Shown piece after piece: positions 20,219-56,046 of a DNA stretch of 64,000 nucleotides. The position numbers were made by a program, and so were the translations under genes. The DNA is from an uncultured Candidatus Binatia bacterium (GTDB taxonomy: Bacteria; Desulfobacterota; Binatia; Bin18), in assembly GCA_965214605.1 (NCBI GenBank), contig OZ243961.1, positions 3,488,001-3,552,000 on the forward strand, given 5' to 3'. Under the pieces are notes generated by a model. The model searched no databases. It was not told the origin of the DNA and saw nothing but the letters and a program-made list of their open reading frames with translations. Within the stretch, counting starts at the first letter, position 1; the number at the start of each line of letters is the position of its first letter.

Positions 20219-20244
20219 GCGTATCCTCCCTGTTGGCAGCTCTG

Positions 20245-20512: not shown

Positions 20513-20710
20513 AGAGCTGGGTGGAGATAGACCTCCCGGCTTAACATCCATCGGAGTGTGGCTGGCCGGGGCACCTCAGTTGTCCGGCACTCTATTTCGG
20601 CCAACACCCGTAGAGCTGGGTGGAGATAGACCTCCCGGCTTAACATCCATCGGAGTGTGGCTGGCCGGGGCACCTCAGTTGTCCGGCACTCTATTTCGGC
20701 CAACACCCGT
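20513..20710. repeat. Perfect 99-bp tandem duplication (2 copies)
   Basis: 20513-20611 and 20612-20710 are identical (agagctgggtggagatag...caacacccgt). Confidence 0.95.
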
Positions 20711-20877
20711 CAGGGGTGCAGTACGGCAGCGAGTACTGCCGGACCTACGTAGGACCGGGCAGCACGCCAAAATTAAAGAGTACGCCGGCACCGACAAGGC
20801 GGCTAGGCGCCACTAAGTTGTTGGTGTTGGGTCCGTGCCAAGAGGCTATACCGACTGAACGGAAAATGATCACTTCA

Positions 20878-22029
20878 TCAGGAAGAGATGGGCGTGTATC
20901 TTTCCTGGAGGCCAAACAGCTTAGCCGCATCACCCATCACCATCTGATATACCTCGTCTTCGGGCACGCCGGCAAAGTCCTTGGCAATTTGGCGCTGAGA
21001 CTTCGGAAAGGTGCCCTCGGTATGCGGATGGTCGGCTCCCCACATCAGGCGATCGACGCCCATAAGCTCACGGGTCAGAATCCCCCGGCGCGATCATCTT
21101 CAAACGTCGCCCAGAATTGCCGCTTAAAATAGGTGCTAGGGGGTTCGTCGAGCTTAGGCTGCAGCCAGTGACGATGATCTTCACCACTAGTGATCCATCA
21201 GACGCAGGATGCACGCAATTCCCCCGATTCCCCCTCAGAGATAATGAACTTGAGCCGGGGATGGCGCTGGGGGGGCTCCGCTCCAAATCAGCTCGGTCAA
21301 TGCGTTCATGGGCTGAAACGCCTTCTCGTCCATAAAAGCATACCGGGACCATTCTTGCGCGCTTTGACAACGGTTGAGGCACCGATATCTGCGGCCGTGC
21401 CCGAGTGGGCGACAGCCGGTAATCCGATCTCTTCCAAACGCTTCCACAGTGGCTCGTAGTCCGGATGGATATACGGCTTGGTCAGCACCGCAGCCGGGAT
21501 CATGAATGCCCTGAGGCCGATCTTGGCCGTCCGTTCGGCTTCTTCGGCCGCCCATTCCAGGGGGCCTTGCATGGGCAGCATCGCCGCTCCGAGTAAACGC
21601 TGCGGGGCGTAGGAACAGAACTCGCTGAGCCAGTCGTTGTACACCCGGACGGCGGCGCGCTGATACTCGGCGTTCGCAATGCGGTAGAACATCAGACTCC
21701 ACTGGCCCGGATAGATTATCTCGGCTCGGAGATTCCAGATCCTGATCTTTGAGCCGTCGGCGTGGATCTGAGGCACCTGGGCGGGTCTCTGAGTGACGGG
21801 CAACCGGGGATTCGACTTTGCCCGCAATCTTGCTCTCCAGAGCTGCCCCGTCAAGGCCGACGGTGACCGGATTGAGCCCATCGACAACGTAGAAGTCGAT
21901 CGCCTTGTGGGTTTCGATCTGGGGGGCCCGGTCGCGAAAGCGGAGTGCTATACGGCTGGTCCACGAATCGGCCGGTTCGACCACATGACCATCGGCTGAA
22001 ACGTATCCGCTAGCAAGGCTGCTTGACAT
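20878..22029 (-). pseudogene. Frameshifted amidohydrolase_2 family gene
   Basis: VSADGHVVEP, then a frameshift to AEIIYPG...VYNDWLSEFC...YEPLW...HSGT, then another frame AFQPMNALTELIWSG, and finally DRLMWGADHPHTEGTFP...AAKLFGL. Confidence 0.88.
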
Positions 22030-22256
22030 GATGCACGACTCCTTCTTGTGTGAACACTCAATGATCAGCGCAGCTAAAAACTCTCTGTCATCCCAGAGCA
22101 GCGGTCTCTTTTTTGGCAAGATAGCACAAGAGACTGACTCAGACAGCCGACTAGAGCGGCTGGAACGGTTGGGCCATTTGACTCTCTGTGAGCGCCCGGC
22201 TATAGCTCTGCAGTCAGCAAGAAGCGGCTGATGGGGTCAGCCCATGAAGGGAGAAA

Positions 22257-22610
22257 ATGATGGTCAAATTTGTTGCTTGTGTCCGCCGTAAAACGGGAAT
22301 GACAAGGACGGAGTTTCAGGATTACTGGAAAAACACCCACGGCCCACTCGTCCGCAGCGTGCCCGAGTTTTGGGCTTATGTCCGCAGATATGTCCAAGGC
22401 CACACGATGAGTGACTCTGTTCCGGGCTTCCCACCTCAGGACGAGGCCCCGTTCGACGGCATTGCCGAGCTGTGGTTTGACGGCGTCGAAGATATCGACA
22501 AAGCTTTTAGTCATCCCCGCTATCTGGAAATCATTCGGCCGGATGAACTGAAATTTGTCGACTTTGCCAATTCCAGGATCTTTGTTGTCGAGGATACGGA
22601 GATTTCGTGA
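22257..22610 (+). CDS. EthD domain-containing protein
   Basis: RKTGMTRTEFQDYWKNTHGPLV, FDGIAELWFD and IRPDELKFVD. Confidence 0.9.
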   Translation: MMVKFVACVRRKTGMTRTEFQDYWKNTHGPLVRSVPEFWAYVRRYVQGHTMSDSVPGFPPQDEAPFDGIAELWFDGVEDIDKAFSHPRYLEIIRPDELKFVDFANSRIFVVEDTEIS

Positions 22611-22667
22611 GCGCTAAGCTGGAGCAGGTGACTCCCCGCCCCAGCGGCTCACTTAGGTTCCACAGTC

Positions 22668-23537
22668 CTATAAGCCCAGAATCTCACGCTTCATTGCCGC
22701 CCGAATATGACACGGGCTGCCAGCCATCTCAGAAATCCTCAGATCGGCCGCCACGCTGGCCAGCATTGCCGCTTCGGTCATATCGGCCTCGGTCCGCACA
22801 ACCAGCAGACGGGCCAGTTCGTCCAAGGCCGCCCGCGCCGCTGCTTCAGCCGTCTCGCCGCTGCCCATGGTCTGGACTTCATTCTGGGTGACGACGATCG
22901 GCTGGCTGAGAGGCAGTTCGGTGACGATATGGCAGCGGAGAGTTACTTCTGCAGCGATCTCGACCGCCGAGGCGGTGGCCTCGCCATCACCCATCCTGGC
23001 GTGCACGTCTTCGATGGTCAGCAGCCCGCCCTCAACAAACACCGGCAAAAAGATTGTTGAGCCAATCCCCAGCTGGCTGTTGCTCAGCTGACCGCCGAAA
23101 TCCCCACACGCTCCGCTCGGCTGGGAGCCTGAGGCAGGCGCCAGTCCAATTTTGCTGATATTCGGGATGAATGGCAGGCTCAGGGTGTCGCTGTAGCGAA
23201 TGCGATTGCCCTCAATTGGGACAACTTTTTTCCGAAACTCGACCTGGTCTTTGAGCAGGCCGAAGCCTGGAATTGCCACTATATAGCCAAACCCCTGGGA
23301 GGCTTTGATGTCCAACACTTCCACGGCCAGCACTTGGCCGGGCTGAACGCTCTCAATAAAGACCGGCCCGGTCATGACGGTCAGCTGCTCCATGGGCCAC
23401 TGCCCGCCCTCGTTCCAGTCTCGAAAGCGGTCATTGGTTTCCATCACAAATACTTCCCCAGGCTTAACTGTGGCAGCCGCAGGGTGGTCGGCGTCAAACG
23501 TCCGCACGATATGCTCTTTGCCAATGGTTTGCATCAC
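22668..23537 (-). CDS. Acetamidase/formamidase family protein (divergent motifs)
   Basis: TVKPGE, TGPVFIESVQPGQVLAVEVLDI, LPVFVEGGLL and DVHARMGDGE. Confidence 0.82.
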   Translation of the reverse strand: MMQTIGKEHIVRTFDADHPAAATVKPGEVFVMETNDRFRDWNEGGQWPMEQLTVMTGPVFIESVQPGQVLAVEVLDIKASQGFGYIVAIPGFGLLKDQVEFRKKVVPIEGNRIRYSDTLSLPFIPNISKIGLAPASGSQPSGACGDFGGQLSNSQLGIGSTIFLPVFVEGGLLTIEDVHARMGDGEATASAVEIAAEVTLRCHIVTELPLSQPIVVTQNEVQTMGSGETAEAAARAALDELARLLVVRTEADMTEAAMLASVAADLRISEMAGSPCHIRAAMKREILGL

Positions 23538-23558
23538 AGGCCTCCTTCTCTGTGGCGA

Positions 23559-23978
23559 TTAGTCGGCGATGGCGTCCAGCCCGGCTTGGGAGCAGGCAAT
23601 ATCTTCGTCAACCGTCCCGCCACCGACTCCGATCCCGCCGATTACTTCGCCGCTGACCACGATCGGCAGGCCGCCACCGACCAGGGTCGCACGTGAGAAG
23701 TGAGAGAGGCCGACCACCAGGGACAGATCGTCCTTGATACGGCCGTACAGATCTTTCGTGCCGACGCCGAACAGCGCCGTAAATGCCTTGCGTTGGCAGC
23801 CTTCAATCCCGAGCAGGAGTGCCCCGTCCATACTGGCCAGGGCCTTTAGATTTCCCCCGCTATCGATCACCGCCACGTTCTGTTTGCAGCCCAGTTCCTC
23901 AGCTTTGGCAACCGCCGCGGCCACCATCTTGGCGGCAGTCTCATACGATAACATCTGTCTGGCGTATGTTTTGGCCAT
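23559..23978 (-). CDS. GlcG/HbpS family heme-binding protein
   Basis: VAVIDSGGNL, RKAFTA and GGGLPIVVSGEVIGGIGVGGG...DIAC. ATG 23978 follows AAAGGAGG. Confidence 0.9.
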   Translation of the reverse strand: MAKTYARQMLSYETAAKMVAAAVAKAEELGCKQNVAVIDSGGNLKALASMDGALLLGIEGCQRKAFTALFGVGTKDLYGRIKDDLSLVVGLSHFSRATLVGGGLPIVVSGEVIGGIGVGGGTVDEDIACSQAGLDAIAD

Positions 23979-24092
23979 AGACGTTCCTCCTTTACTGTTA
24001 TAGGGGGGATGATCTCTCTCTGAGTCATCGCCGTTCACCCTTTCCGTACCCCGCTCCTGTGCCAGCGTCAAGCTTGTCCGGATAGCGGTTGG

Positions 24093-24123
24093 TTTGACAA
24101 AAGCGGCCGAAGCGCAGAATAAT
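24093..24123 (+). promoter_or_regulatory. Promoter-like element, copy A
   Basis: tTTGACAaaagcggccgaagcgcagAATAAT; 27/31 identical to 36901-36931. Confidence 0.6.
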
Positions 24124-24146
24124 TGCCGGTAAACGGGAGATCTGCC

Positions 24147-24767
24147 GTGTTCTGTATTACCGCAATCCAGCACGCTCTGGCTCAGCGCGCCCCAGCCCCG
24201 GATCCGTCTCAACTCGACCGCAACCGGACCGCGGTGGCACTGGTCTTAGCCGGCTCCGAGCCCGACTTACACCTGTGTATGATCCGTCGGGCCGACCGCA
24301 CGGGTGATCCGTGGTCGGGGGATATGGCGCTGCCGGGTGGCCGGGCTGCGCCGGAGGATATCAGTTTACAGGAGACGGCGGAACGGGAGACGTATGAAGA
24401 AGTCGGTCTCGTCCTCGCTCCCACCCACCGGTTGGGAGCACTGGCCGAAATATCGATCCTGCTACGTGGCCGGGACCGGCTGCTGTTCCTAGCACCGTTT
24501 GTGTATTACCTGGGACCGACCCTTGCGCCGTTTACTCCTAACGCCGAGGTCGGAGAGGTCTATTGGATAGCGCTGGCGCATTTGTGGAACGAACACAACG
24601 CCACCTCGCTCAATCTACCGACCCAGGACGTTTCGTTATGGTACCCGGCGATTGGTTACCGTCAGCAGATAGTGTGGGGTATTACTCACCGGGTGTTAAT
24701 GCTCTTTTCGGACGTCATCGGACGTCCCTTACCGCATTTGGAAGCCATCCCGGGCCTTGGTCACTAG
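24147..24767 (+). CDS. CoA pyrophosphatase-like Nudix hydrolase
   Basis: WSGDMALPGG, Nudix box TAERETYEEVGL, PNAEV and IVWGIT. GTG start inferred. Confidence 0.85.
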   Translation: MFCITAIQHALAQRAPAPDPSQLDRNRTAVALVLAGSEPDLHLCMIRRADRTGDPWSGDMALPGGRAAPEDISLQETAERETYEEVGLVLAPTHRLGALAEISILLRGRDRLLFLAPFVYYLGPTLAPFTPNAEVGEVYWIALAHLWNEHNATSLNLPTQDVSLWYPAIGYRQQIVWGITHRVLMLFSDVIGRPLPHLEAIPGLGH

Positions 24768-24803
24768 GCGGCCTGCGGGGCGGCTATTTGGAGGCAGACA
24801 AAC

Positions 24804-27035
24804 ATGGAGATCGTCGGCTATGCTGACCAATTCAGTGTCGCTCCGGGTGAAACGATTCGTTTTCATGTCAGCTGTAAACAGCAGCGGTACCAGGCCGATA
24901 TCGTGCGTCTAATCCACGGGGATCCCAACCCGCGCGGACCGGGCTTCAAAGAGACACTTGTTCAGACGACGGTAAGCGGCGAGTATCCGGGTCGTGAGCA
25001 GGTGATCCACACCGGCTCACATGTCGTCGTGCCCGATGCGCCTCTGCTGCGCCTGCACGACAGTTTCAGCCTGCAAGCCTGGATCTATCCCACCACACCG
25101 CAGAAAGCCCAACAGGGGATTCTTACCAAATGGTCGGCCGCCGACGGTGGTTATGCTTTAGTCCTTGATGAGGGTGGGGTTTTAGCCTTGTGGGTGACCG
25201 ACCTCCAAGGCCGCAGACAGCAGGTACGGGGTGCTACGCCGCTACGAGCGGGAGAGTGGTATTTTGTGGCGGCGACCTTTGACGCCCAGATCGGGACACT
25301 CGCGATCTACCAGGAGCCGCTGCGCACCTGGCCGCGCGATCCGACCCGGGGGATGGAGACCGCCCCGACCAACATCCGGGCGATACAAACGACGGCGGCC
25401 GATTGTGTGATAGCCGGTATGTGGCAGCCTGGAGCCGACGGGGAGTCCCGGGTTGGACGACATTTTAACGGCAAGATCGACCGCCCACGCGTCTTCCAGC
25501 GGGCTCTGAGTCAGGAAGAACTGGTCTCGCTGCAGCGCGGAGCCTCGCCGCTCACCTTTGGCGACGCTCTCGTTGTTGCCTGGGATTTTTCGGTTGATAT
25601 GGCCTCGTCGACAGTGATAGACACCTCACCCCACGGCTTGCACGGCCGGACGGTCAATATGCCTGCCCGGGCGATGACGGGCTACAATTGGAGTGGACAG
25701 GAAACCCACTTTCGGTATGCCCCGCACGAGTACGGGGCGATTCATTTTCATGATGACGATCTTGAGGACGCCGGCTGGGAGGTGGATTTTGTCTGGACGC
25801 TACCGATCGATCTGAAAAGCGGGGTGTATGCCGCGCGCCTGCGTACTGAAGGGGGCGAGGACCATATTCCGTTTTTTGTGCGTCCACCAAAGGGCAGAGC
25901 CACGGCGGACATCGCCTTCCTCGCTCCCACCAACAGTTATTTGGCCTATGCCAACGAGCAACTCGCCGAGCTGTCGCTGGACCTGTTTCCCAATCAAAAG
26001 AAGGGTGAGCTTGCGCCGGACGACCGCTACCTCAGAGAGAATCGCCTGCTGAGCCTATACGATAGTCATGCCGACGGCAGCGGAGTCTGCTATTCCAGCC
26101 GGTTGCGGCCTATACTCAATATGCGCCCGCGCTACCACATGCAGCTTCTTAGCTCTCCGCACCAGTTTCCCGCCGACTTACACCTGATCGACTGGCTCGA
26201 AGCTAAGAGCCATGCCTATGATGTGATTACCGATGAGAATCTGCACGCTGAGGGGCTGGACCTACTCGCCCCCTACAAGGTCATCATCACTGGCAGTCAT
26301 CCCGAGTACTGGTCCGGGCCGATGCTGGACGCGCTGGAAGCCTATCTGCAAAACGGTGGACGGCTGATGTATCTGGGTGGTAACGGTTTTTATTGGGTTA
26401 CCTCGTTTGCTCCCGGCCGTCCTCACGTTGTTGAGGTCCGGCGTTGGGGCGGGACCCGCAGCTGGCAGGCCAAACCCGGCGAATACCACCACAGCACTAC
26501 CGGAGAACCCGGTGGTTTGTGGCGTGATCGAGGCCGAACGCCCCAGCGCCTAGTCGGCGTTGGCTTCACCACCCAAGGCTTTGATATCAGCGCCCCATAC
26601 CAGCGCCAGTCCGACAGCTTTGATCCGCGCGTGGCGTTTATTTTTGAGGGGATCGGAGCCAAAGAAGCCATCGGCGACTTTGACACTCTAGTCCTCAACT
26701 ACGGGGCGGCCGGTTTTGAGCTGGACCGGGCCGAGCGTTCTCTCGGCACCCCCGCCCACGCCTTGGTCCTCGCCTCCTCGTCCGGCCACTCGGATGCCTA
26801 TCAGCACGTGGTCGAAGAAGTACTCGCGAGCGATTCAAAACAGGGCGGTACGGTTAACCCCAAGGTCCGCGCCGATATGGTGTATTTTGAATACCCCAAG
26901 GGCGGTGCGGTCTTTTCGGCGAGCTCTATCGCCTGGTGCGGAGCCCTCTCTTACAACCAGTATAATAACAATGTGTCGCGGATTACCGATAACGTCTTGC
27001 GCCGATTCGCCGCCCAGGGCCCACTGTCCGAATAA
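24804..27035 (+). CDS. N,N-dimethylformamidase large (beta) subunit-like protein with LamG-like domain
   Basis: GYADQFSVAPGETI, GAIHFHDDDL, SGVYAARL, SYLAYAN, SLYDSH, GSHPEYWS, MYLGGNGFYW and NNVSRITDNVLRRF. Confidence 0.9.
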   Translation: MEIVGYADQFSVAPGETIRFHVSCKQQRYQADIVRLIHGDPNPRGPGFKETLVQTTVSGEYPGREQVIHTGSHVVVPDAPLLRLHDSFSLQAWIYPTTPQKAQQGILTKWSAADGGYALVLDEGGVLALWVTDLQGRRQQVRGATPLRAGEWYFVAATFDAQIGTLAIYQEPLRTWPRDPTRGMETAPTNIRAIQTTAADCVIAGMWQPGADGESRVGRHFNGKIDRPRVFQRALSQEELVSLQRGASPLTFGDALVVAWDFSVDMASSTVIDTSPHGLHGRTVNMPARAMTGYNWSGQETHFRYAPHEYGAIHFHDDDLEDAGWEVDFVWTLPIDLKSGVYAARLRTEGGEDHIPFFVRPPKGRATADIAFLAPTNSYLAYANEQLAELSLDLFPNQKKGELAPDDRYLRENRLLSLYDSHADGSGVCYSSRLRPILNMRPRYHMQLLSSPHQFPADLHLIDWLEAKSHAYDVITDENLHAEGLDLLAPYKVIITGSHPEYWSGPMLDALEAYLQNGGRLMYLGGNGFYWVTSFAPGRPHVVEVRRWGGTRSWQAKPGEYHHSTTGEPGGLWRDRGRTPQRLVGVGFTTQGFDISAPYQRQSDSFDPRVAFIFEGIGAKEAIGDFDTLVLNYGAAGFELDRAERSLGTPAHALVLASSSGHSDAYQHVVEEVLASDSKQGGTVNPKVRADMVYFEYPKGGAVFSASSIAWCGALSYNQYNNNVSRITDNVLRRFAAQGPLSE

Positions 27036-41114: not shown

Positions 41115-43118
41115 TCAGTGCTGGTTTGGATTTGTTTTTGTCGTGGCTTTGGCATTATCCTGTTCACCACAGCTGCCAGCGCGGCCAAGGCTCATGGGCT
41201 GCAGCCTAGGGGCGTGCGGAAAGACCTGCCGCCACCACAGGGGCACGAGGCTGAGGCTGAGGACCGGGAGCGCCACCAGCCAAACCGACCGCCAGGGAAA
41301 CCAGCTTGGGGTCGGGCTGAAAAAGAGCCAGCTGCCAAGTCCTGTTAGCAGCAAAAAGACAGACAGAGCGGCACTGAGCGTCGCCAGCAGCGTCCAGCCC
41401 AGTTGGCGACGTCCCTGGCGGGGGTCTTGACCGAGCGCCCGGTGCTGGGGGCCCCAAAAACCCGGCGGGCGGACTTGGCGGTAGAAGGCCTGCAGTTGCC
41501 CATCGTCCACTCTGGCCGTTTGCACCGAGGTCCATATACCCGCGGCAGACGAAACGGCCGCCACGCTGAGCAGGCGCAGGGCTTCATAGCTATCAGGGAC
41601 AGTGAGCAGAAGGATCGGAGCCAGCACACACGACACGCCTATGGTGGTGAGTTCCCCGACTGCGGTAATCCGCCACCACACCCAGCGCAGGACCAACATG
41701 ACACCTATGCCAGCCCCAAATAGGAGGCTGATTTTCCAGGCCGTTTGAATTGAGGAGAGGTGGAACATGATGATCAGAGCGATGGCCAAAATCCCAATAT
41801 TTGCCCCGCGTGCCACCCAAACTAGCGAACGGTCGCTTGGCTCGCGCCCCAGCCACCGTTGGCACACCAGGCGGCGGTAGATATCGTTGCTCCAGTACGA
41901 TGCACCCCAGTTCAGATGGGTATCAACCGTTGAGGCCAGGGCGGCCAGCAGACCCATCAACATCAGGCCTTTGAGACCCGGAGGCAGGAGTTCGGCAATC
42001 CCACGGACAAAGGACGCCTCCCGGTCTGCAGTTAGCGCGCTCCCGGTCAAGCTTGGCTCGGGCGGCAGCAGAACGAGCAGACCTAGGCCGATCGTAATCC
42101 ACAACAGACTACGAAAAACGACCTGGACCAGGGTAAATATCAGGCTGGCCCGTTTGGCATCAAGATCGCTCCGACAGGCCATGCTCCGCTGGGCAAGATA
42201 GCCTGTACCGTCCGCATTCATTTGTACCAGCCATTGGAGGGCAAGCACGGCCAGAAACGCGACTGAAACGTCTTTGGCCTGAGAGGGGGTAAAGGCCAGG
42301 AGCTGGCTGGCTTGTATTCCGCCCGGACCGGCCTGGCCGATGTAGATGACCGACAGCTGTCCGGCCAGAGTGCTTAGTCCGCCGACCTCGGCGAGGACCC
42401 AGCCGGCGTAGGCAGCCGTGGCCAGCATGGCCACACTAAATTGCAGCACGTCGGTTGCCACCACGCTGCGCAATCCGCCGGTTGTCGAGTAGAAAACGGT
42501 GACTAGCACGATCAGAGCGATGGATAACAGGTTGTTGGTCGAGCGAATCCACACCTCCGGACTGTTGTCGGTGAGCGTGGTCAGGGGGGTGTTGAGCCAC
42601 TGTACGGCGGACAAAAGCGGCTCGTACAGCTCTGGGCTGAGCCAGCGATGCCAGACCAAAAAGGGCTCTGCAATGCGCGTTGTGGCCAGCAGAACGATAG
42701 CCAGCACCGTACAGTTGAAAATTGTCCCCAAATAGATCGCCTTCACTCCACGCAGCAGGAGGGCAGTGGGGGAGCCGTAGCGCCGCTCGGTCAACTCGGC
42801 GTCGGTCAGCACGCCGGCCCGCCGCCAGGCCGGGGCCAGGACAAAACCGACCAACAGAAAGGACAGGGCGTAGGACCAGATCCACCAGAGGGAAAAAATG
42901 CCGGACACCGCCAGCAGACCAGTACATAACAGCGGCGTATCCGCGGCAAACTGAGTCGCCGCCATGCTGATTCCCGCCTGCCAGCCGTTCAGACTCCGAC
43001 CGGCCAAAAAGTACTCTTCTAAATTCTTTGAGGCGAGGCGACGGGAACGCAGGCCCGCGCTGATGGCGTACACTAGGAAGGCGACCAGAATGCAGATGTC
43101 AATCGTCTCCAGACCCAT
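41115..43118 (-). CDS. Sodium:solute symporter (SSS) family transporter
   Basis: EYFLAGRSL, SMAATQFAADTP, GGLRSVVATDVLQF, GYLAQR and LAALASTVDT; many TM segments. Confidence 0.92.
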   Translation of the reverse strand: MGLETIDICILVAFLVYAISAGLRSRRLASKNLEEYFLAGRSLNGWQAGISMAATQFAADTPLLCTGLLAVSGIFSLWWIWSYALSFLLVGFVLAPAWRRAGVLTDAELTERRYGSPTALLLRGVKAIYLGTIFNCTVLAIVLLATTRIAEPFLVWHRWLSPELYEPLLSAVQWLNTPLTTLTDNSPEVWIRSTNNLLSIALIVLVTVFYSTTGGLRSVVATDVLQFSVAMLATAAYAGWVLAEVGGLSTLAGQLSVIYIGQAGPGGIQASQLLAFTPSQAKDVSVAFLAVLALQWLVQMNADGTGYLAQRSMACRSDLDAKRASLIFTLVQVVFRSLLWITIGLGLLVLLPPEPSLTGSALTADREASFVRGIAELLPPGLKGLMLMGLLAALASTVDTHLNWGASYWSNDIYRRLVCQRWLGREPSDRSLVWVARGANIGILAIALIIMFHLSSIQTAWKISLLFGAGIGVMLVLRWVWWRITAVGELTTIGVSCVLAPILLLTVPDSYEALRLLSVAAVSSAAGIWTSVQTARVDDGQLQAFYRQVRPPGFWGPQHRALGQDPRQGRRQLGWTLLATLSAALSVFLLLTGLGSWLFFSPTPSWFPWRSVWLVALPVLSLSLVPLWWRQVFPHAPRLQPMSLGRAGSCGEQDNAKATTKTNPNQH

Positions 43119-43228
43119 GCGTGTGTCCGAATGCGCTCATTAGGGGAAACAACAGTGTGACAAATGGGAGACCGAGGGCGTTTTTCAGTATGGATTATAT
43201 TTGCCGCAGTGCGTTAAGATCAACAAAT

Positions 43229-44026
43229 ATGAATAGCCGCCCGCCTCGTGTTGACCATGCGCTCTCTAGCCTGCACCGCCAATGGTGGTTGATTAGCCTT
43301 ATCTCCAGTCTGAGCTTGGGTCTGAGCTCTGCGCTGCTGTGCGTCGGTTGGCGACCCGATGCGGTCCGTCGCTGGGCGTTACTGGCCGGCTGTGTGTTGG
43401 TGACCGAACTGATTTTCTTATGGAGATGGCTCCCGGACAACTATAGACAGCCCGGGCAGCGTCTGCTGCCCGTCTTAGGGATGGGAAACCTCCTAACTAT
43501 TATGCGTGGGCTGCTGGTTGGCCTGTTGGCCGGCTTTCTGGGGGGCGGCTGGCCGCCCGGCTGGCTGGCCTGTCTTCCGGCTGGTCTGTATAGCCTGGCC
43601 GCGGTCGGAGATTGGCTCGACGGCTATGTGTCTCGAAAGACGCACTATACCACCCATCTGGGCCGACGCCTGGACATGGAGGTCGACGCGCTGGGGCTGT
43701 TGGTGGCAACTAGCCTGGCCGTGCAGTATGGTCAACTGCCCGTCTGGTACCTGTGTCTGGGGTTTGCCCCTTATGGTTTTGGATTGGGTCAGTGGTGGCG
43801 GGGATGGCGGGGAAAACCGGTCTATAGCCTTCCGCCGCGGGCGACCCGAGCCGTGATCGGGGGTTGCCAGGTCGGCTTTATCAGCGTCGTCCTGTGGCCC
43901 GTCTTCTCGCCGCCCCTCACCACGCTGGTCGGCCTGCTGTTCGTGATTCCTACCGCGGTGAGCTTTAGCCATGATTGGCTGGCGGTAAGCGGCCGGCTAG
44001 GGGCTGCATCTCCCGATAGCGGCTAG
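43229..44026 (+). CDS. CDP-alcohol phosphatidyltransferase family protein
   Basis: GNLLTIMRG and signature DWLDGYVSR...LGRRLDMEVD. Start uncertain. Confidence 0.88.
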   Translation: MNSRPPRVDHALSSLHRQWWLISLISSLSLGLSSALLCVGWRPDAVRRWALLAGCVLVTELIFLWRWLPDNYRQPGQRLLPVLGMGNLLTIMRGLLVGLLAGFLGGGWPPGWLACLPAGLYSLAAVGDWLDGYVSRKTHYTTHLGRRLDMEVDALGLLVATSLAVQYGQLPVWYLCLGFAPYGFGLGQWWRGWRGKPVYSLPPRATRAVIGGCQVGFISVVLWPVFSPPLTTLVGLLFVIPTAVSFSHDWLAVSGRLGAASPDSG

Positions 44027-44104
44027 GAACATTGTTGCATTTTGTGAGAAATCGTGCATGTTCCTGTGTCGGTGAGGCGCCTGCAAGCCGAAGGAGGGCA
44101 GAGT

Positions 44105-45496
44105 ATGGGTGAAGCCAGTGTTCAGCCAGTAGCGCGTGCCCGTATCCCGACCGCAGAGGGGGAATTCCAGCTGTGTCTGTACAAGAACGGGCAGGCCGGC
44201 AAGGAACATCTAGCGCTGGTGCTTGGGAATGTGGCGGGTCGCCCCGACGTGCTGGTTCGGGTCCACTCAGAATGCTTCACCGGTGACGTCCTAGGCTCTC
44301 TGCGCTGTGATTGTGGCTCCCAACTGAACTGCTCCATGCAGCGAATCGCGCAAGAGGGAGTCGGCATTATTGTCTATCTGCGCCAGGAGGGCCGGGGGAT
44401 CGGTCTGTCCGACAAGCTGCGGGCCTATAATCTCCAAGATCAGGGCCATGGGAGCGTCGAGACCAACCTCCTGCTCTCTCACCAGGCAGCTGAGCACGAT
44501 TACACCGTGGCAGCGATGATTCTCAAAAATCTGGACGTTCTGTCTGTCCGTCTGTTGACCAACATCCCCCTCAAAATCGAGAGCTTGCGAGAGTACGGGG
44601 TAGCGGTTACCGCGCAGATTCCTCTCTCAGCTCCTGTGCCTGCCGGAAATGCTGGCGATCTGCAGACCAAAGTCCAGCGTATGCATCATCTGCTGAGCCT
44701 CGACTCGATTGCCTCGGCCGCCGCGTCCCCCCACGCCGACGTCCCCCCGGCCGCCCACGCCGATACGTATCGGCGCGCCCTCCTGGCGCGCATGGTCGGC
44801 CATCGCCAACGCACCGGCCTCCCATTTGTCACTCTGAGTTATGCCCAGAGCGTGGACGGGTGCATCGCCGCCCGCCCGGGCCAGCCCATGGCCCTCAGTG
44901 GACCGCAAGCGCTCGTCCTGACCCACCAGCTGCGGGCCGACCATGATGCCATTCTGGTCGGTATCGGAACAGTGTTAGCAGACGACCCACGCCTGAGCGT
45001 CCGTCTCGTCAAAGGGCGCAATCCGCAGCCGATTATTGCCGATAGCCGTCTGCGTTTTCCACCCGATGCCAGGCTGCTCCGGAACCCTGACCGAACGGCC
45101 TGGATTGCGACCTGCCAACAGGCCGACGGACACCGTCAGGAGGTCTTTGAGAGCGCTGGCGCACGCGTGCTGCGGCTGCCGCCAAACGCCCGCGGCCAAG
45201 TTGACCTGGCCGTGTTGTTGGAACGCCTTGGACAGCTTGGCATTAACAGCCTGATGGTTGAGGGCGGGACGCGCATCATTACCAGTTTTCTTTCAGAGCA
45301 GTTGGTCGATTCGGTCGTGTTAACCATTGCGCCAAAACTGCTGGGTGGACTGCGAGCCGTGCGTCAACTGCGCCTCCTCGACCCGATCCAACTGCCGCAC
45401 CTGCACAATGTTCGCTATCAACAGCTTGAAGACGACATCATCATGTGGGGCGATCCCGTGTGGGAGGTCCAAGAGGACTGGGCCGTGCAGGAGTAG
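44105..45496 (+). CDS. Fusion of GTP cyclohydrolase II (degenerate) and RibD C-terminal/Rib7-type pyrimidine reductase
   Basis: RVHSECFTGDVLGSLRCDCG, RQEGRGIG and KLRAYNLQD; then VTLSYAQSVDG, DAILVGIGTVLADDPRL and LMVEGG. No deaminase domain. Confidence 0.9.
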   Translation: MGEASVQPVARARIPTAEGEFQLCLYKNGQAGKEHLALVLGNVAGRPDVLVRVHSECFTGDVLGSLRCDCGSQLNCSMQRIAQEGVGIIVYLRQEGRGIGLSDKLRAYNLQDQGHGSVETNLLLSHQAAEHDYTVAAMILKNLDVLSVRLLTNIPLKIESLREYGVAVTAQIPLSAPVPAGNAGDLQTKVQRMHHLLSLDSIASAAASPHADVPPAAHADTYRRALLARMVGHRQRTGLPFVTLSYAQSVDGCIAARPGQPMALSGPQALVLTHQLRADHDAILVGIGTVLADDPRLSVRLVKGRNPQPIIADSRLRFPPDARLLRNPDRTAWIATCQQADGHRQEVFESAGARVLRLPPNARGQVDLAVLLERLGQLGINSLMVEGGTRIITSFLSEQLVDSVVLTIAPKLLGGLRAVRQLRLLDPIQLPHLHNVRYQQLEDDIIMWGDPVWEVQEDWAVQE

Positions 45497-45498
45497 CT

Positions 45499-46545
45499 AT
45501 GAGGCGTCAGGCGCTGTACTTCACCGCGCCGTATCAGCTTACGGTACGAGAGGAGCCGCTGGCCATACCGCTGGGCGGTCAAATACTGGTCCAAACCGTG
45601 CTCTCGGCCATTAGCTCAGGGACCGAGCTGTTGATCTACCGCGGCCAAGTCCCCACTGATATGGCAGTCGATGACACCATTGCCGCGCTGAGTGGCGATT
45701 TTGGCTTCCCCCTCAAATACGGATATGCGGTTGTTGGGCGTGTCGTCGCCGTGGGGCCGGACGTTTCCTCGGACTGGGAGAGCCGGCTGGTGTTTGCCTT
45801 TCACCCCCATGAGAGCCACTTTGTGACTACGCTGGCCGAAGTCGTTCCGCTACCGGTTGACATGACGCCGGACCAAGCCGTTTTTCTGCCTAATATGGAA
45901 ACCGCAGTCAACCTGCTGATGGATGGCCGTCCGCTGATCGGTGAACGAGTTGTGATTATTGGCCAGGGCATCGTTGGGCTCCTGACTACCCGCCTGCTGA
46001 CTCGCCTGCCGGTCGGTCGCCTAATCAGCCTCGACCGCTATGCCGCCCGGCGAGAACGCTCCCTTAGTCTGGGAGCCCAGGTGAGTGTAGACGCCGAGGC
46101 GACCGACGTGCTGGATCGGATGCGCCAGGCCCTTGAGGATGGCGCGCCGGTCAGAGGGGCGGACCTGACGTATGAGTTGTCGGGCAATCCGGCTGCTCTT
46201 GACCTGGCCATTGCTGCGACCGGCTTCGATGGGCGGGTGATTATTGGCTCGTGGTATGGACATAAGCGGGCGGTGGTAGACCTGGGTGGACGTTTTCATC
46301 GCAGTCGGATTCGCCTGATCAGCAGCCAGGTGAGCAGCATTGCCTCAGAGTGGACCGGTCGCTGGACCAAAGCGCGTCGTTTGCAGCTCGCCTGGCAGCT
46401 ACTCGAACACCGCCCGCCCGGTCCGCGCCTGACTGAGCTGATTAGCCACCGCTTTCCGCTTGGACAGGCGGCTGAGGCTTACGCTCTGCTCGATCAACAG
46501 CCCCAGCACGCATTGCAAGTCGTGCTGACCTATGAGGGCTGCTGA
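45499..46545 (+). CDS. MDR-family (zinc-binding alcohol dehydrogenase-like) oxidoreductase
   Basis: SAISSGTELLIYRG, FPLKYGY, FHPHES, NMETAVN and IGQGIVG. Confidence 0.88.
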   Translation: MRRQALYFTAPYQLTVREEPLAIPLGGQILVQTVLSAISSGTELLIYRGQVPTDMAVDDTIAALSGDFGFPLKYGYAVVGRVVAVGPDVSSDWESRLVFAFHPHESHFVTTLAEVVPLPVDMTPDQAVFLPNMETAVNLLMDGRPLIGERVVIIGQGIVGLLTTRLLTRLPVGRLISLDRYAARRERSLSLGAQVSVDAEATDVLDRMRQALEDGAPVRGADLTYELSGNPAALDLAIAATGFDGRVIIGSWYGHKRAVVDLGGRFHRSRIRLISSQVSSIASEWTGRWTKARRLQLAWQLLEHRPPGPRLTELISHRFPLGQAAEAYALLDQQPQHALQVVLTYEGC

Positions 46546-46570
46546 GAAACATGACAAGGAGGAAACGCAT

Positions 46571-46966
46571 ATGTATAGGGTTGCCATTAAGCGGGATTTC
46601 GTGGCCCAACACTTTCTGATTGGGGGTGACTGGGGGGCGGAGAATGAGTGGCACTCACACCATTACCAGGCCGAGATTCAGTTGGAAGGCAATAGCCTGG
46701 ATCAGCACGGCTACCTCGTCGACATCGTTGACATTGAGGCCAATCTGGATGACTTGGTGGCCTATTTCCGAGACAAAACCCTGAACGAAAAGCCCGAGTT
46801 CGAGGGCCTCAATCCCAGTATTGAGCGCTTTGCCCACATCTTCTGCCGGGCGCTGGCCGAACGTCTGCAAGCGCCGACCCTCACGGCCCTCACGGTCAAG
46901 CTGTGGGAGCACGAGAATGCCTGGGCATCGTATCGACAGGAAGTGTCGTGCGGGTTGGGCTCCTGA
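46571..46966 (+). CDS. PTPS/QueD (COG0720) paralogue lacking the catalytic Cys (PTPS-IV-like)
   Basis: RDFVAQHFLIGGDWGAENEWHSHHY, GYLVDI, LNEKPEFEGLNPSIE and LWEHENAWASY. No CxxxHGH motif. Confidence 0.85.
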   Translation: MYRVAIKRDFVAQHFLIGGDWGAENEWHSHHYQAEIQLEGNSLDQHGYLVDIVDIEANLDDLVAYFRDKTLNEKPEFEGLNPSIERFAHIFCRALAERLQAPTLTALTVKLWEHENAWASYRQEVSCGLGS

Positions 46967-48030
46967 TCTATGGCAGTCTGGATATTTTGACCGGGGGGTT
47001 TCTGTACGATCGCCTGCTGGTCGACTACCTCCGTCGTCAGGGGGATGAGGTCGAGGTCATCAGCCTGCCGTGGCGGACGTATGGACATCACCTGGCCGAC
47101 AATTTCTCGACCGCTTTTTTCCAGCGCCTATGTCAAACCTCGTGCGATGTACTGATCCAAGACGAATTGAACCATCCGTCGCTATGGTGGCTCAACGGTC
47201 GGCTGAAGCGGCGGGTCGACTACCCGCTGGTCACCCTTGTGCATCTGCTGCGTTCGAGTGAGGCGCGGCCGGCTTGGCAGAACCGTTTCCACCGCTGGGT
47301 GGAACAGCGCTACCTGCGGACCCTTGACGGTTTGATTTTTAACAGCAAAACGACCGGGCGCCAAGTCGAAGCCCTGCTTGGGCCGGGATATCCGAGTGTG
47401 GTGGCCTATCCTGGCTGTGACCATCTCCACCCAACGCTGTGCTCCGACGCTATCGCCGCCCGAGCCCGGCAGCCCGGTGCGCTGCGGATTCTGTTCATCG
47501 GCAACCTGATCCCACGTAAGGGATTGCATGTGCTAATTGAGGCCCTGACGAGTCTTCCTCGACCTGACTGGCAGCTCACAGTGATTGGTGATCTGAACAT
47601 GGACCCCGCCTATGTCCGTCAGGTGCGCCGCCAGATCAACCGGGCCGATCTACAGGCCCAGATCACCCTTCTCGGAGCCGTCCTGCAGGAAAACATCGTG
47701 TCCCACCTTGCCCACCACCAGGTGCTGGCCGTGCCCTCTTTGTACGAGCCGTTCGGGATTGTGTATGTTGAGGCGCTGGGTTTTGGTCAGCCGGTCATCG
47801 CCACCACGGTTGGCGCCGCCCACGAAATTATCAGCCATGGCCGGGAAGGGTTTCTCATTGCCCCCGGCGACAGCGCTGCGCTGGCCCACCATCTCAGCCG
47901 ACTCCACGCCGACCGGCAGGGCTTGGTGCGGATGAGTCTGGCCGCCCAGCAGCGCTACCGCAGCTGTCCGACCTGGGACGAGAGCGCAGGACGGATTCGC
48001 CAATTTATCTCCACTCTAACCAAGCCATGA
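46948..48030 (+). CDS. Glycosyltransferase family 4
   Basis: TGGFLYDR, FIGNLIPRKG and PSLYEPFGIVYVEAL...PVIAT. Confidence 0.92.
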   Translation: MRVGLLIYGSLDILTGGFLYDRLLVDYLRRQGDEVEVISLPWRTYGHHLADNFSTAFFQRLCQTSCDVLIQDELNHPSLWWLNGRLKRRVDYPLVTLVHLLRSSEARPAWQNRFHRWVEQRYLRTLDGLIFNSKTTGRQVEALLGPGYPSVVAYPGCDHLHPTLCSDAIAARARQPGALRILFIGNLIPRKGLHVLIEALTSLPRPDWQLTVIGDLNMDPAYVRQVRRQINRADLQAQITLLGAVLQENIVSHLAHHQVLAVPSLYEPFGIVYVEALGFGQPVIATTVGAAHEIISHGREGFLIAPGDSAALAHHLSRLHADRQGLVRMSLAAQQRYRSCPTWDESAGRIRQFISTLTKP

Positions 48031-48989
48031 TTCGTCCCCACCACTACTCGTACTCTCGCTACCTAGCGGCCAAAAAGAGCCTTGATGACCGCTCTCTCAA
48101 CCCCCGGGTGTGGCAGCGTTTTGCTGAGGCCCTGCCCCAGGCCGGCCAGGATCGCCCCCTGCGCTTGCTTGAGGTCGGAGCCGGAATTGGCACGATGGTC
48201 GAGCGAGTGTTGGAAAAGCGGCTGCTGAGCCGGGCGACCTATACCGCTATTGACGTGGAATGGGCCACTATAACCGAGGCCGCCCGTCGCCTCCCACGCT
48301 GGGCCGGTCAGCACGGATTTCACGTCAGCCAAGCCCCGCCGTCTCAAGACCGTTGTCGGCGGCTACGTTTTCAGTCTGGTCAAGAGGGTGGACAAGATAT
48401 TGCGGTCGAACTGGAAGCCGTTGAGCTATCGGCCTTTGTGCGTCGCGAACAGGGCAGACGGACCTGGGATGTCCTCCTCGCCCACGCCTTGCTCGATCTC
48501 GTTGACGTGCCGTCGGTTTTGCCTGGACTGGTGTCTGTTCTTTCGCCGGGTGGGGTGCTGTATTGCACCCTGACCTTTGACGGAGCGACTATTTTCCAGC
48601 CCCAGCTTGAGCCTCAGCTTGACGCCCAGATTGAAGCTTTGTACCACCGGACGATGGACCAGCGTCGTATCGCCGGCGTTCGGTCCGGAGAGAGTCGGGC
48701 CGGGCGACACCTTTTTGGCCATATGCGGACCGCCGGGGTCGAGGTGGTGGCAGCGGGCAGCTCTGACTGGGTTGTGTTTGCCGGGTCGGACGGATACCCG
48801 GCCGACGAGGCCTATTTTTTGCACTGCATTCTTAACACGGTCGAGACCACCCTGACCGGACATCCTGAGCTTGATGCCAAGCGCTTTACGGCCTGGCTGG
48901 CCCGGCGTCACGCTCAGGTTGAGCACGGCTCCTTGGTCTATATTGCCCATCAGTTAGATCTGCTGGGACGCCTAGGGACTCCCCCCTGA
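48027..48989 (+). CDS. Class I SAM-dependent methyltransferase
   Basis: YLAAKKSLDDRSLN, motif I LLEVGAGIG, HALLDL and LSPGG. ATGA overlap with the GT4 gene. Confidence 0.85.
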   Translation: MIRPHHYSYSRYLAAKKSLDDRSLNPRVWQRFAEALPQAGQDRPLRLLEVGAGIGTMVERVLEKRLLSRATYTAIDVEWATITEAARRLPRWAGQHGFHVSQAPPSQDRCRRLRFQSGQEGGQDIAVELEAVELSAFVRREQGRRTWDVLLAHALLDLVDVPSVLPGLVSVLSPGGVLYCTLTFDGATIFQPQLEPQLDAQIEALYHRTMDQRRIAGVRSGESRAGRHLFGHMRTAGVEVVAAGSSDWVVFAGSDGYPADEAYFLHCILNTVETTLTGHPELDAKRFTAWLARRHAQVEHGSLVYIAHQLDLLGRLGTPP

Positions 48990-49002
48990 TAACTCAGGGG
49001 GG
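48981..49002. terminator. GC-rich hairpin between the convergent operon end and tRNA
   Basis: CCCCCCTGA-taac-TCAGGGGGG (9-bp stem); no U-tract. Confidence 0.4.
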
Positions 49003-49011
49003 GCTGGGGAG

Positions 49012-49084
49012 AGCCACCCATCGGACTTGAACCGACGACCTGCTAATTACGAATCAGCTGCTCTACCAACTGAGCTAGGGTGGC
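49012..49084 (-). tRNA. tRNA-Thr(CGT)
   Basis: GCCACCC acceptor stem, TAGCTCAGTTGGTAGAGC D-arm, GCTGA-TTCGTAA-TTAGC anticodon arm and GTTCAAGTC T-loop. CCA is not encoded. Confidence 0.96.
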
Positions 49085-55107: not shown

Positions 55108-55710
55108 CTAATAGCGGCGCCGTCCGCCTCCACGCCGCTCTGCCGGCCGGGCTTCGTTCACTTTGAGCACGCGTCCAAGCTGTGTCTGGCCGTCAAAGCG
55201 CTTGATGGCCGCTTCGGCCTCCTCTTTTGAACCCATCTCAACAAAGGCAAACCCTTTGGATTGACCGGTCCCGCGGTCCGTCACCAGACTGACGCTAGCC
55301 ACGGTTCCGGCTTCTTTGAGCAACGTCTCAACGTCTGAAGCGCTGGCACTATAGGGCAGATTGCCAACAAACAGCCGGGTCCCGCGTGAACGTGGTGGAC
55401 CGCCCGACGAGCGGCCGGCATCTCCTCCATCAGACCGTGGACCTCTGCCTCTCGGACCTCCGCGCATCAGGCTGGCTTCGTTGACAACGAGGTTCTTGCC
55501 CTCAATCTCGCGACCGTTGAGAGCCGTTATGGCGGCTTGGGCGTCTTCGTTGTTGGCCATCTCGACAAAGCCAAAGCCACGCGACCAACCGGTTGCTGGA
55601 TCGGTGATCAGCTCGGCCGTGGCGATCGTACCAAATGGGGTGAACAAGTCTTCCAATTCAGGAAAACACAGACGCGAGGGCAGATTTCCAACGTAGAGCC
55701 GTGTGCTCAA
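55108..55710 (-). CDS. RNA-binding protein with two RRM domains
   Basis: RNP2/RNP1 pairs LYVGNL/RGFGFVEM and LFVGNL/KGFAFVEM with a Gly/Arg-rich linker. TTG start follows GGAGG. Confidence 0.92.
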   Translation of the reverse strand: MSTRLYVGNLPSRLCFPELEDLFTPFGTIATAELITDPATGWSRGFGFVEMANNEDAQAAITALNGREIEGKNLVVNEASLMRGGPRGRGPRSDGGDAGRSSGGPPRSRGTRLFVGNLPYSASASDVETLLKEAGTVASVSLVTDRGTGQSKGFAFVEMGSKEEAEAAIKRFDGQTQLGRVLKVNEARPAERRGGGRRRY

Positions 55711-55758: not shown

Positions 55759-56046
55759 CTACCAGCGCTCGCGGCCCTCACCGCGTGGTCCGCGCGGTTC
55801 CTTGGGTTTGGCCTCGTTGACCGTCAGCGGTCGTCCGTTCAGTTCGTATTCATGGAAGCGTTCTATGGCTGCCTGCGCTTCTTCATCAGTGCCCATTTCC
55901 ACAAAACCAAAGCCGCGTGAACGACCGGTAAATTTATCCATAATGATATTCACCGATGTCACAGCACCTGACTGAGCAAAGAGTTCTTCGAGATCTTGAT
56001 TGGTCGTGCTAAAGGGTAGATTTCCAACAAAAAGTTTGTTTGCCAC
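55759..56046 (-). CDS. RNA-binding protein, single RRM
   Basis: LFVGNL, RSRGFGFVEM and LTVNEAKP. GTG start follows GGAGG. Confidence 0.95.
   Translation of the reverse strand: MANKLFVGNLPFSTTNQDLEELFAQSGAVTSVNIIMDKFTGRSRGFGFVEMGTDEEAQAAIERFHEYELNGRPLTVNEAKPKEPRGPRGEGRERW

Follow-up and report, generated by a model that had tools for sequence, protein, structure and literature searches.

An Orphan Gene Cluster of the SCO6650/PTPS-IV Type in a Candidatus Binatia Genome and a Possible Route from GTP to a Glycosylated Pterin

INTRODUCTION

Within the PTPS/QueD family of T-fold proteins, PTPS-IV has been described as a cluster of 561 sequences that carry an FGPAQ signature and have PF00925 and PF01872 genes as neighbors (PMC5445326; papers are cited here by PMC number and for those parts of them that were accessible). 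That paper labels PF00925 as FolE2; its Pfam name is GTP cyclohydrolase II. PTPS-IV has also been assigned to F420 synthesis with a citation of unpublished work (PMC5041015), and one of the three RibA copies of Streptomyces coelicolor has been ascribed a new function unrelated to flavins (PMC13151069). The cluster type has been in the literature for more than 10 years, and we found no report of its product. In this study we examined an operon of this type, six genes at positions 43229-48989 of a 64,000-nucleotide stretch of contig OZ243961.1 (positions 3,488,001 to 3,552,000; assembly GCA_965214605.1) from an uncultured Candidatus Binatia bacterium. That whole stretch is called the window here.

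Related chemistry is known from other organisms. In Chlamydia, RibA and TrpF convert 2,5-diamino-6-ribosylamino-4(3H)-pyrimidinone 5'-phosphate (DARP) to 7,8-dihydroneopterin monophosphate, bypassing GTP cyclohydrolase I (GCH I) (PMC4161248). Cyanopterin carries an O-methylated sugar on 6-hydroxymethylpterin, and the enzymes that glycosylate the pterin side chain belong to glycosyltransferase family 4 (GT4); the accessible part of that paper describes no lipid link for the cyanobacterial pterin glycosides (PMC3546692). Enzymes of the creatininase family produce DARP by deformylating the formyl intermediate (PMC9478397), and haloarchaea carry a housekeeping ArfC (HVO_1341; PMC8305020). In the accessible portions of the halopterin literature, no link to genes was seen.

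An earlier interpretation of the window, made from its letters without database searches (the sequence-only reading), had proposed that the six genes form an orphan operon for a GTP-derived, glycosylated or methylated and possibly lipid-anchored heterocycle, and it knew of no identified end product. Our literature searches, in which subscription journals were outside coverage, likewise found no published product of the SCO6650/PTPS-IV-type cluster.

RESULTS

The operon and its host genome

Open reading frame (ORF) and Pfam analyses identified six genes in the operon, all co-oriented on the plus strand. The genes, the domains of the fusion protein, and the bordering tRNA gene are listed here.

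43229..44026, plus strand: CDP-alcohol phosphatidyltransferase of a cluster-specific type, accessory gene (265 aa; PF01066, E 1.5e-12)
44105-45496, plus strand: RibA-RibD reductase fusion without a deaminase domain (463 aa; PF00925 and PF01872)
44105..44704, plus strand: GTP cyclohydrolase II (RibA) domain of the fusion (PF00925)
44801..45496, plus strand: RibD-type reductase domain of the fusion, no deaminase (PF01872; TIGR00227 above its cut-off)
45499..46545, plus strand: medium-chain dehydrogenase (MDR), BchC-like, core gene (348 aa; PF00107)
46571..46966, plus strand: T-fold protein of the PTPS/QueD family, E-x3-H-x-H branch (131 aa; PF01242)
46948..48030, plus strand: GT4 glycosyltransferase, core gene (360 aa; PF00534, E 2.6e-33, and PF13692)
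48027..48989, plus strand: class I S-adenosylmethionine-dependent methyltransferase, near-core gene (320 aa; PF08242)
49011..49084, minus strand: tRNA-Thr(CGT), downstream boundary, outside the pathway (ARAGORN; Rfam RF00005)

With the chosen start codons the junctions in gene order are 78, 2, 25, −19, and −4 nt, and the domains, the 2-nt gap, the 19-nt overlap, and the ATGA overlap given in the sequence-only reading were all borne out. For the phosphatidyltransferase, a GTG upstream at 43121 would extend the ORF into the divergent promoter region. Because the same six genes in identical order were also found in three genomes of the same genus (L004, L139, and L140), we conclude that the set did not arise by chance. 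A single contig from a public sequencing run (X2) spans 43100-49039 with two differences; among the sequencing runs, no RNA data set was listed as containing the operon.

The host genome (4.37 Mb, 99.99% complete) has a separate ribD-ribBA-ribH operon, folE, cofG, and cofD, together with two further PTPS-family genes, one with a PTPS-II motif and one with a PTPS-III motif. Since the host has its own riboflavin and folate genes and other PTPS genes, the operon is extra to riboflavin, folate, and queuosine synthesis. One of the additional genes (C1:345214-346032) has two PTPS domains in tandem with a total of two CxxxxxHGH motifs, and the other (C1:3709556-3709987) is a separate PTPS-family gene with ExxHGH (EPLHGH). 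The sequence-only reading had stated that ribE, ribH, queC, queE, and queF are absent. This held for RibH, in that the housekeeping RibH of the host finds no match inside the window, and for QueC, which had zero matches in the whole host genome; a Pfam scan of 34 ORFs in the window showed no ribE, queE, or queF, and no search directed at these three families was made.

Relationship of the operon to the PTPS-IV type

The best solved match of the T-fold protein was SCO6650 (PDB 3d7j), with E-values of 5.9e-8 for the single sequence and 1.5e-15 for a profile, and with 60.4 bits versus 33.4 for the next solved structure. The neighborhood described for PTPS-IV is also present, PF00925 and PF01872 both being encoded in the gene two places upstream. 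At the position of the FGPAQ signature, as printed in PMC5445326, the protein has WGAEN; the subfamily as first defined may be broader than this signature. The PTPS-IV/SCO6650 assignment made in the sequence-only reading is thus correct in gene neighborhood and closest solved structure and fails in the signature. We conclude that the operon is a copy of the SCO6650/PTPS-IV-type orphan cluster that belongs to an E-x3-H-x-H branch.

In 41 sequences, H14, E24, H28, H30, E85, and E113 are invariant, as are W21 and G22. The protein has Glu at the catalytic-Cys position and keeps three His and both ring-binding Glu positions; these roles (the catalytic-Cys position and the ring-anchoring Glu) are those of PTPS structures. 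Judged by its residues, the site appears to fit a 2-amino-4-oxo substrate and a deaminase-free cluster. Membership in the three other subgroups was rejected: for PTPS-I/QueD, the protein has ENEWHSH instead of CxxxHGH and scores 43 bits against the TIGR03367 cut-off of 89, with no QueC match in the host; for PTPS-II (CxxxxxHGH), it has no Cys in the motif; and for PTPS-III (ExxHGH), the spacing from its invariant Glu to the His is four residues, and the motif has H-S-H. The FGPAQ branch is without E24 and the third His (H30) and retains the same neighbors.

At least 527 confirmed T-fold relatives were found in GTDB genomes. The GTDB loci were taken from the best 80 of these (79 distinct, mostly Chloroflexota), and counts out of 37 refer to distinct GTDB loci flanked on each side by 7 kb or more. 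The dehydrogenase is present at 31 of the 37, the RibD-type reductase at 23, RibA at 20, and PF03706 at 21; all six window genes are found at 12. A metagenome scan seeded by a Streptomyces plasmid copy yielded 518 FGPAQ-type relatives, whose loci have the dehydrogenase in 48/49 cases with room upstream and RibA or RibD-C in 19/20. Six of ten haloarchaeal plasmid matches were opened; the dehydrogenase, T-fold, and methyltransferase genes follow in that order in 6/6, with the GT4 gene between in 4/6. Co-occurrence across genomes, the test that the sequence-only reading had named, was therefore seen in both bacteria and haloarchaea. From these comparisons, the core of the cluster is the deaminase-less RibD reductase, the zinc-site-less dehydrogenase, the T-fold protein, and the GT4.

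In an even set of 201 genomes of the host's phylum, a T-fold ortholog was found in 11 (E at most 1.6e-32, compared with at least 4.9e-18 in the rest). Closer to the host, the fusion gene is present in 4/7 other same-genus genomes and in 0/47 genomes of other genera in the family, a patchy distribution suggestive of gain or repeated loss.

Further genes were seen at some distant loci. A DUF7475 small membrane protein is encoded in or beside 3/6 haloarchaeal loci (L085, L086, and L087), and a Gfo/Idh/MocA oxidoreductase at 2/6. Weak sulfatase-family matches, under the Pfam cut-off, lie beside two distant clusters (L201:5819-7882 and L087:7979-8848).

Entry substrate

The cyclohydrolase step differs among the clusters. 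RibA is of the Tyr type in 37/38 aligned bacterial E-x3-H-x-H clusters, the Streptomyces locus being the exception, and creatininase and GTP cyclohydrolase III (GCH III) genes are absent from 89/89 bacterial loci of this branch. At FGPAQ-type loci a creatininase-family gene is adjacent in 6/7 with Met or His at the Tyr site and in 0/7 with a Tyr-type RibA, some contigs being short. Haloarchaeal loci have GCH III (L086) or creatininase (L087) in place of RibA. SCO6655 of S. coelicolor, with Met at the Tyr site, presumably stops at the formyl product. Given such a Met-type enzyme and the deformylation by creatininase-family enzymes described above, the three set-ups would converge on DARP.

The reductase domain retains R277, D293, R300, and E386, and Ser245 replaces the Lys found in the housekeeping RibD of the host and in Bacillus subtilis RibD. 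The cluster reductases have Ser, Thr, Ala, Cys, or Gln at that site and Lys in 0/41. We take the Lys position to be the deaminated-substrate site of RibD, and the Arg, Asp, and Glu residues to act in the substrate site. No deaminase motif was found near the cluster reductase (0/47 copies), and the housekeeping control was positive. Against TIGR01508 the domain scored 141.7 bits, under the cut-off of 186.45; among the solved structures that match it, archaeal DARP reductases rank second and third (E 4e-29 and 7e-28) and Rv2671 ranks last (8e-11). A stand-alone reductase ortholog was found in 4/4 tested cluster genomes without a copy at the locus and not in one control genome, and the reductase is absent from 6/6 haloarchaeal loci. 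We predict from its sequence that the domain is a DARP reductase of the ArfC/Rib7 kind. Because of the site residues, the missing Lys and deaminase, the orthologs elsewhere in the genome, and the haloarchaeal omission, it is highly probable that the pathway is entered through the ribitylamino compound DAROPP as committed substrate. The cyclohydrolase set-ups and the deaminase-less reductase both support the GTP-derived, ring-opened, non-deaminated starting point of the sequence-only reading.

The dehydrogenase

The dehydrogenase has an MDR fold (pLDDT 91; Z 34.2 to 4oh1) and is without the usual catalytic zinc ligands, having Ser39 for Cys and G-Y-A for G-H-E. In 49 sequences, S39, E43, Y76, H104, and E134 are invariant. 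The TIGR01202 (bchC) model matches 49/49 family members, this protein with 67.6 bits against a cut-off of 291. No bch genes were found beside the dehydrogenase gene, and identity with BchC was rejected for the low score and the missing photosynthesis gene context. BchC is alike in having no zinc ligands, and we take it to be zinc-independent; a literature search found no paper on that point. The structural neighbors are mostly polyol and secondary-alcohol dehydrogenases, and neither fold searches nor the Atlas returned a match that points to a particular substrate of the dehydrogenase.

An ortholog of the dehydrogenase is present in 49/51 cluster genomes. In the phylum sample it occurs in the identical 11/201 genomes as the T-fold protein, and in 3 of those 11 the two genes are on separate contigs; it is thus the most faithful partner of the T-fold protein, yet the scheme of the sequence-only reading had left it without a role. 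A complex prediction for the two proteins gave a score of 0.01. In a quick tree of the dehydrogenases (49/85 sequences used), the FGPAQ and E-x3-H-x-H types lay on separate deep branches (SH-aLRT 100); most of the inner branches were not separated, so no donor lineage is named.

The GT4 and the methyltransferase

A GT4 gene is present at 36/37 of the well-flanked GTDB loci and at 43/43 FGPAQ-type loci with room downstream. When the protein was compared with the pterin glycosyltransferases (BGluT/PgtA), only residues 177-332 aligned, and these enzymes ranked 6-9 among GT4 structures, whose matches included 5ze7 and 9v0l. In the methyltransferase, E49-x-G51-x-G53-x-G55 and D76 are invariant in 55 sequences. 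Its gene is found at 34/37 GTDB loci, and in the phylum sample it is found in 8/11 cluster genomes and 0/190 others. For the methyltransferase, as for the dehydrogenase, no match pointing to a particular substrate came from fold searches or the Atlas. Both assignments are at the family level only. In one same-phylum cluster a HAD hydrolase gene (L124:12188-12820) follows the methyltransferase gene; it might encode the phosphatase needed in the scheme discussed below.

The phosphatidyltransferase and the lipid question

The residues D128-x2-D131-G132-x3-R136-x8-G145-x3-D149-x3-D153 of the transferase are invariant in 36 cluster-type sequences. They correspond to the CDP-alcohol motif D-x2-D-G-x2-A-R-x7-9-G-x3-D-x3-D, with Asp, Gly, and Arg kept and Ala read as Ser. 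The transferase gene lies beside the core at 20/37 GTDB loci, 20/27 FGPAQ-type loci, and 3/6 haloarchaeal loci, and at 26/31 transferase loci it is accompanied by a PF03706 flippase-like gene. PF03706 was detected at 8 FGPAQ-type loci (by Pfam; 8/13 ORFs scanned). This pairing favors a lipid product in lineages that have both genes. Chloroflexota transferases (L006, L009, and others) are approximately 390 aa long and have a C-terminal extension of approximately 130 aa relative to the 265 aa found here; Pfam identified no domain in that extension.

A transferase ortholog was present in 30/38 cluster genomes of the Chloroflexota/Binatia type (reached via GTDB loci). When the single protein and a 36-sequence profile of both branches were used as queries, none was found in ten near-complete same-phylum core genomes (0/10). 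Six relatives without the cluster also had none (0/6). The best matches in the ten core genomes scored 31-49 bits, like those in non-cluster genomes, and the orthologs scored 259-289. Because 0/10 of these core genomes have a cluster-type transferase, we conclude that lipid anchoring is an optional module, and that the transferase is an accessory and not the defining step. The host genome contains no cluster-type PF03706 ortholog (41.5 bits versus 255-272 for true orthologs); it shares the condition of a transferase without cluster-type PF03706 with two same-genus genomes and one other Binatia genome (L140 being among the genomes checked). These results weaken the view of the sequence-only reading that lipid anchoring is part of the core. 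For this particular organism, lipid attachment is conceivable and, on balance, doubtful.

Decay of the RibA domain in this copy

In an alignment with 2bz0 (offset 3), the RibA domain retains the zinc cysteines C57, C68, and C70 and, at Y108, the equivalent of Tyr105. It also has nine substitutions at columns at least 90% conserved that are not shared by the same-genus copy L004, whereas each other operon domain has 0-2 private changes at conserved columns. The residues D116, T117, D129, R131, N154, and Y185 are invariant in 38/38 homologs; this RibA has His131 and Ala129 at the equivalents of Arg128 and Asp126, which are Arg and Asp in all 38. We take Arg128 and Asp126, so numbered, to be the α-phosphate-site pair of GTP cyclohydrolase II. 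An arginine next to the α-phosphorus, with no residue number, has been described for this enzyme in a paper that also doubts the covalent mechanism (PMC13151069).

The domain is canonical in four same-genus genomes, the gene in one of them being cut by a contig edge at codon 182. The nonsynonymous rate (dN) is 0.183 for codons 111-200 versus 0.056 for codons 1-110. Contigs of four studies contain identical changes (X2 and X5 at all nine sites; X6 and X8 over codons 115-154), and sequencing error was rejected, there being no differing letters in the runs of these studies. In this genome the fused RibA domain, whose second half has decayed, has probably lost its activity, a point that the sequence-only reading does not mention. 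The rest of the operon probably remains under purifying selection: all six frames are open, and the ratio of nonsynonymous to synonymous rates (dN/dS) relative to L004 is 0.10-0.21. Because the fused domain has decayed, housekeeping RibBA probably supplies DARP in this genome. This copy is ill-suited to expression of the whole operon without an added active RibA; the same-genus copies are canonical.

A second ribBA-like gene of the host (C1:853660-854892; L003 1423-2655, minus strand) has a cyclohydrolase domain without zinc cysteines and is presumably of the RibBX type. With this gene and the decayed fusion, the host has one intact and two degenerate GTP cyclohydrolase II domains.

Surroundings of the operon

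A sodium:solute symporter gene (PF00474; 41115-43118, minus strand) runs divergently to the operon, and a sigma-70-like site lies at 43223-43194 on the symporter strand. It occupies the same position in every same-genus copy, and in another Binatia genome (L008) it lies directly upstream of the RibA fusion, the L008 transferase being elsewhere. The symporter could share the regulation of the operon or import a substrate. Further upstream is ino1, for myo-inositol-1-phosphate synthase (PF07994/PF01658; 39135-40451, plus strand), which the sequence-only reading had mentioned together with the operon. Membership was rejected because the divergent transporter separates ino1 from the operon and because genomes of the genus differ in how far away ino1 lies; it was not seen as a recurring neighbor at other cluster loci. 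An inositol monophosphatase gene (2765-3601, minus strand) adjoins a gene of the deoxyhypusine synthase family (PF01916; 3608-4660, minus strand).

Downstream, the last stop codon of the operon is 21 nt from the tRNA-Thr gene, which together with thiE/thiG converges on the operon. Promoter and terminator scans gave chance levels (2 versus 1.4 and 8 versus 4.9, respectively), and the Rfam scan found tRNA only and no FMN riboswitch. Elsewhere in the window, 19151-27035 contains an amide-degradation group (carbon-nitrogen hydrolase, acetamidase/formamidase, HbpS-like, and an N,N-dimethylformamidase large-subunit-like gene, PF20254), and two adjacent genes at 55108-55710 and 55759-56046 (minus strand) encode RRM RNA-binding proteins, one with two RRM domains.

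DISCUSSION

The operon is a genuine copy, ordinary in appearance, of an orphan cluster that was already known. Our preferred reading of its function, put forward tentatively and with slightly less than even confidence, is that it converts GTP, by a route around GCH I, to a pterin-type compound that is glycosylated and usually methylated. Whether the product contains a pterin ring could go either way.

The first two steps of the scheme are strongly indicated. GTP would be opened to DARP, and the reductase would take DARP ahead of deamination by the housekeeping RibD, giving DAROPP with the 2-amino group kept. The remaining steps are drawn from gene company and analogy. The dehydrogenase would oxidize the ribityl C2'-OH, and the ketone and the 5-amino group would condense to 7,8-dihydroneopterin 3'-phosphate, so that a reduction and an oxidation would stand in place of the Amadori rearrangement. 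A ribitylamino-diaminopyrimidine is one oxidation short of a pterin. With C2' as the site, which we prefer, the product would be the compound that Chlamydia makes from DARP, which provides a chemical precedent. The T-fold protein would hold the 2-amino-4-oxo face and promote ring closure, the cutting or rearrangement of the side chain, or both, 6-hydroxymethyl-dihydropterin being one example of a product. By analogy with cyanopterin, the GT4 would then add a sugar and the methyltransferase a methyl group. As an optional last step the transferase, where present, would join the product to a phosphatidyl group.

Several observations weigh against this scheme. GCH I is already present in the host and in at least 43/51 cluster genomes, which also leaves the cluster unsupported as a replacement for folE, and a route that first reduces and then oxidizes looks roundabout. 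Given that the FGPAQ branch is without E24 and H30, these residues may be unneeded for a shared reaction. The GT4 is as close to unrelated GT4 enzymes as to the pterin glycosyltransferases (E approximately 1e-10, C-terminal domain) and is missing directly downstream of the PTPS gene at 2/6 haloarchaeal loci. The methyltransferase is missing from 3/11 cluster genomes (in one of the three, the contig ends there), and its fold search returned no close characterized match (TM 0.55 or lower) and hence no clue to the substrate. Finally, the co-occurrence profiles (A1 and A2) contain sequences from several of the genomes later searched, and related genomes are not independent.

One alternative keeps the entry through DAROPP and has no pterin. 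The dehydrogenase and T-fold protein would remodel the ribityl chain by C3' or C4' oxidation and loss of the phosphate, and the main product would be a modified ribitylamino-pyrimidine or a seven-membered pyrimidodiazepine, glycosylated, that serves as a membrane-lipid head group. The pairing of the transferase with PF03706, the many loci with a transferase beside the core, and a T-fold site that fits none of the PTPS-I, II, or III motifs all speak for such a product. However, the core occurs without the cluster-type transferase in ten near-complete genomes, which implies a soluble product useful by itself unless a housekeeping transferase substitutes; in addition, the host is without a flippase-type partner, and no sign of C3' or C4' oxidation was seen. 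We regard this alternative as unlikely, though worth keeping in view.

A less probable alternative makes the T-fold protein an isomerase of DARP that, like TrpF, carries out an Amadori rearrangement with ring closure, after which the RibD-type domain and the dehydrogenase would reduce the ring or side chain to yield a glycoside resembling tetrahydrobiopterin (BH4). GCH I and PTPS do share a T-fold and enolization chemistry, the BH4 glucosyltransferases are GT4 enzymes, and the weakly matching Rv2671, which is RibD-C-like, we take to be a dihydrofolate reductase. The reductase domain argues otherwise: it keeps the two Arg, the Asp, and the Glu of the ribosyl-phosphate site, archaeal DARP reductases far outrank Rv2671 among its matches, and its absence from all six haloarchaeal clusters is as expected if it duplicates ArfC. 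We consider an isomerase role improbable.

It is very improbable that the whole operon is decaying and its product already lost in this lineage, with the RibA damage as the first sign. The nine private RibA changes, the missing flippase partner, and the lack of the fusion gene in 3/7 same-genus genomes would agree with such a loss, but the six open frames, the few private changes in the other domains, and the low dN/dS relative to L004 do not, and housekeeping RibBA can supply DARP. Least probable of all is a contribution of the cluster to an established cofactor pathway (F420, folate, or riboflavin), in spite of the F420 statement in PMC5041015, the cofG and cofD genes of the host, and the lack of both GCH I families in 8/51 cluster genomes, since those eight are assemblies of unstated completeness, cofG is found in only 3/48 cluster genomes and 0/10 near-complete ones, the host has its own ribD-ribBA-ribH, folE, and PTPS-II- and PTPS-III-motif genes, the fusion gene is missing from all 47 family genomes of other genera, and none of these pathways calls for a GT4 or a methyltransferase. 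The rarity of cofG leaves the F420 role unsupported and makes that assignment doubtful for the E-x3-H-x-H branch.

Returning to the preferred pterin scheme, its boldest form combines the two-enzyme redox bypass with new T-fold chemistry to give an undescribed glycosyl-methyl-pterin or pyrimidodiazepine. In lineages that have both transferase and flippase, this compound would be attached to a phosphatidyl group and exposed outside the membrane. We rate this combination unlikely; if true, the product would be the first pterin-type phospholipid, common to actinomycetes, Chloroflexota, Binatia, and haloarchaea. Confirmation of the scheme would establish a third route from GTP to pterins and perhaps reveal membrane lipids of a new class. 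With the comparisons made here, the question of the product comes down to three soluble enzymes acting on DARP or DAROPP. The comparisons also set the lipid module, which is optional, apart from a soluble core, and they count against the printed F420 function for this branch.

Comparison with known systems

The closest described systems are the FGPAQ-type loci of SCO6650/PTPS-IV, which have the same dehydrogenase, GT4, methyltransferase, transferase, and RibA, and often RibD-C. The operon differs from them in its motif, WGAENxxHSHHY instead of FGPAQxxHGAT, in which the catalytic-Cys position is Glu and a third His is kept. It also differs in having RibA and RibD-C fused, a RibA of the Tyr type, and no creatininase or flippase-like gene. 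The haloarchaeal MDR-PTPS-GT4-methyltransferase operons, on plasmids of Haloarcula, Natronorubrum, Haladaptatus, Halomicrococcus, and Halobellus, have the same gene order, and their T-fold proteins are 43-52% identical over full-length matches and share the E-x3-H-x-H motif. They differ in having no RibA or RibD-C at the locus and sometimes GCH III or creatininase.

Other resemblances are to parts of the proposed pathway. The Chlamydia bypass employs one isomerase and feeds folate, whereas a reductase plus a dehydrogenase and a decorated end product are proposed for the operon. Cyanobacterial pathways to BH4-glucoside (BGluT) and cyanopterin (PgtA) start from GCH I, and the operon GT4 shares only generic C-terminal similarity with their glycosyltransferases. 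The archaeal and fungal riboflavin route (ArfA, ArfB, and ArfC/Rib7) also reduces DARP before deamination, with similar reductase residues; unlike that route, the cluster has no deaminase, lumazine synthase, or riboflavin synthase, and its flux would leave the flavin route.

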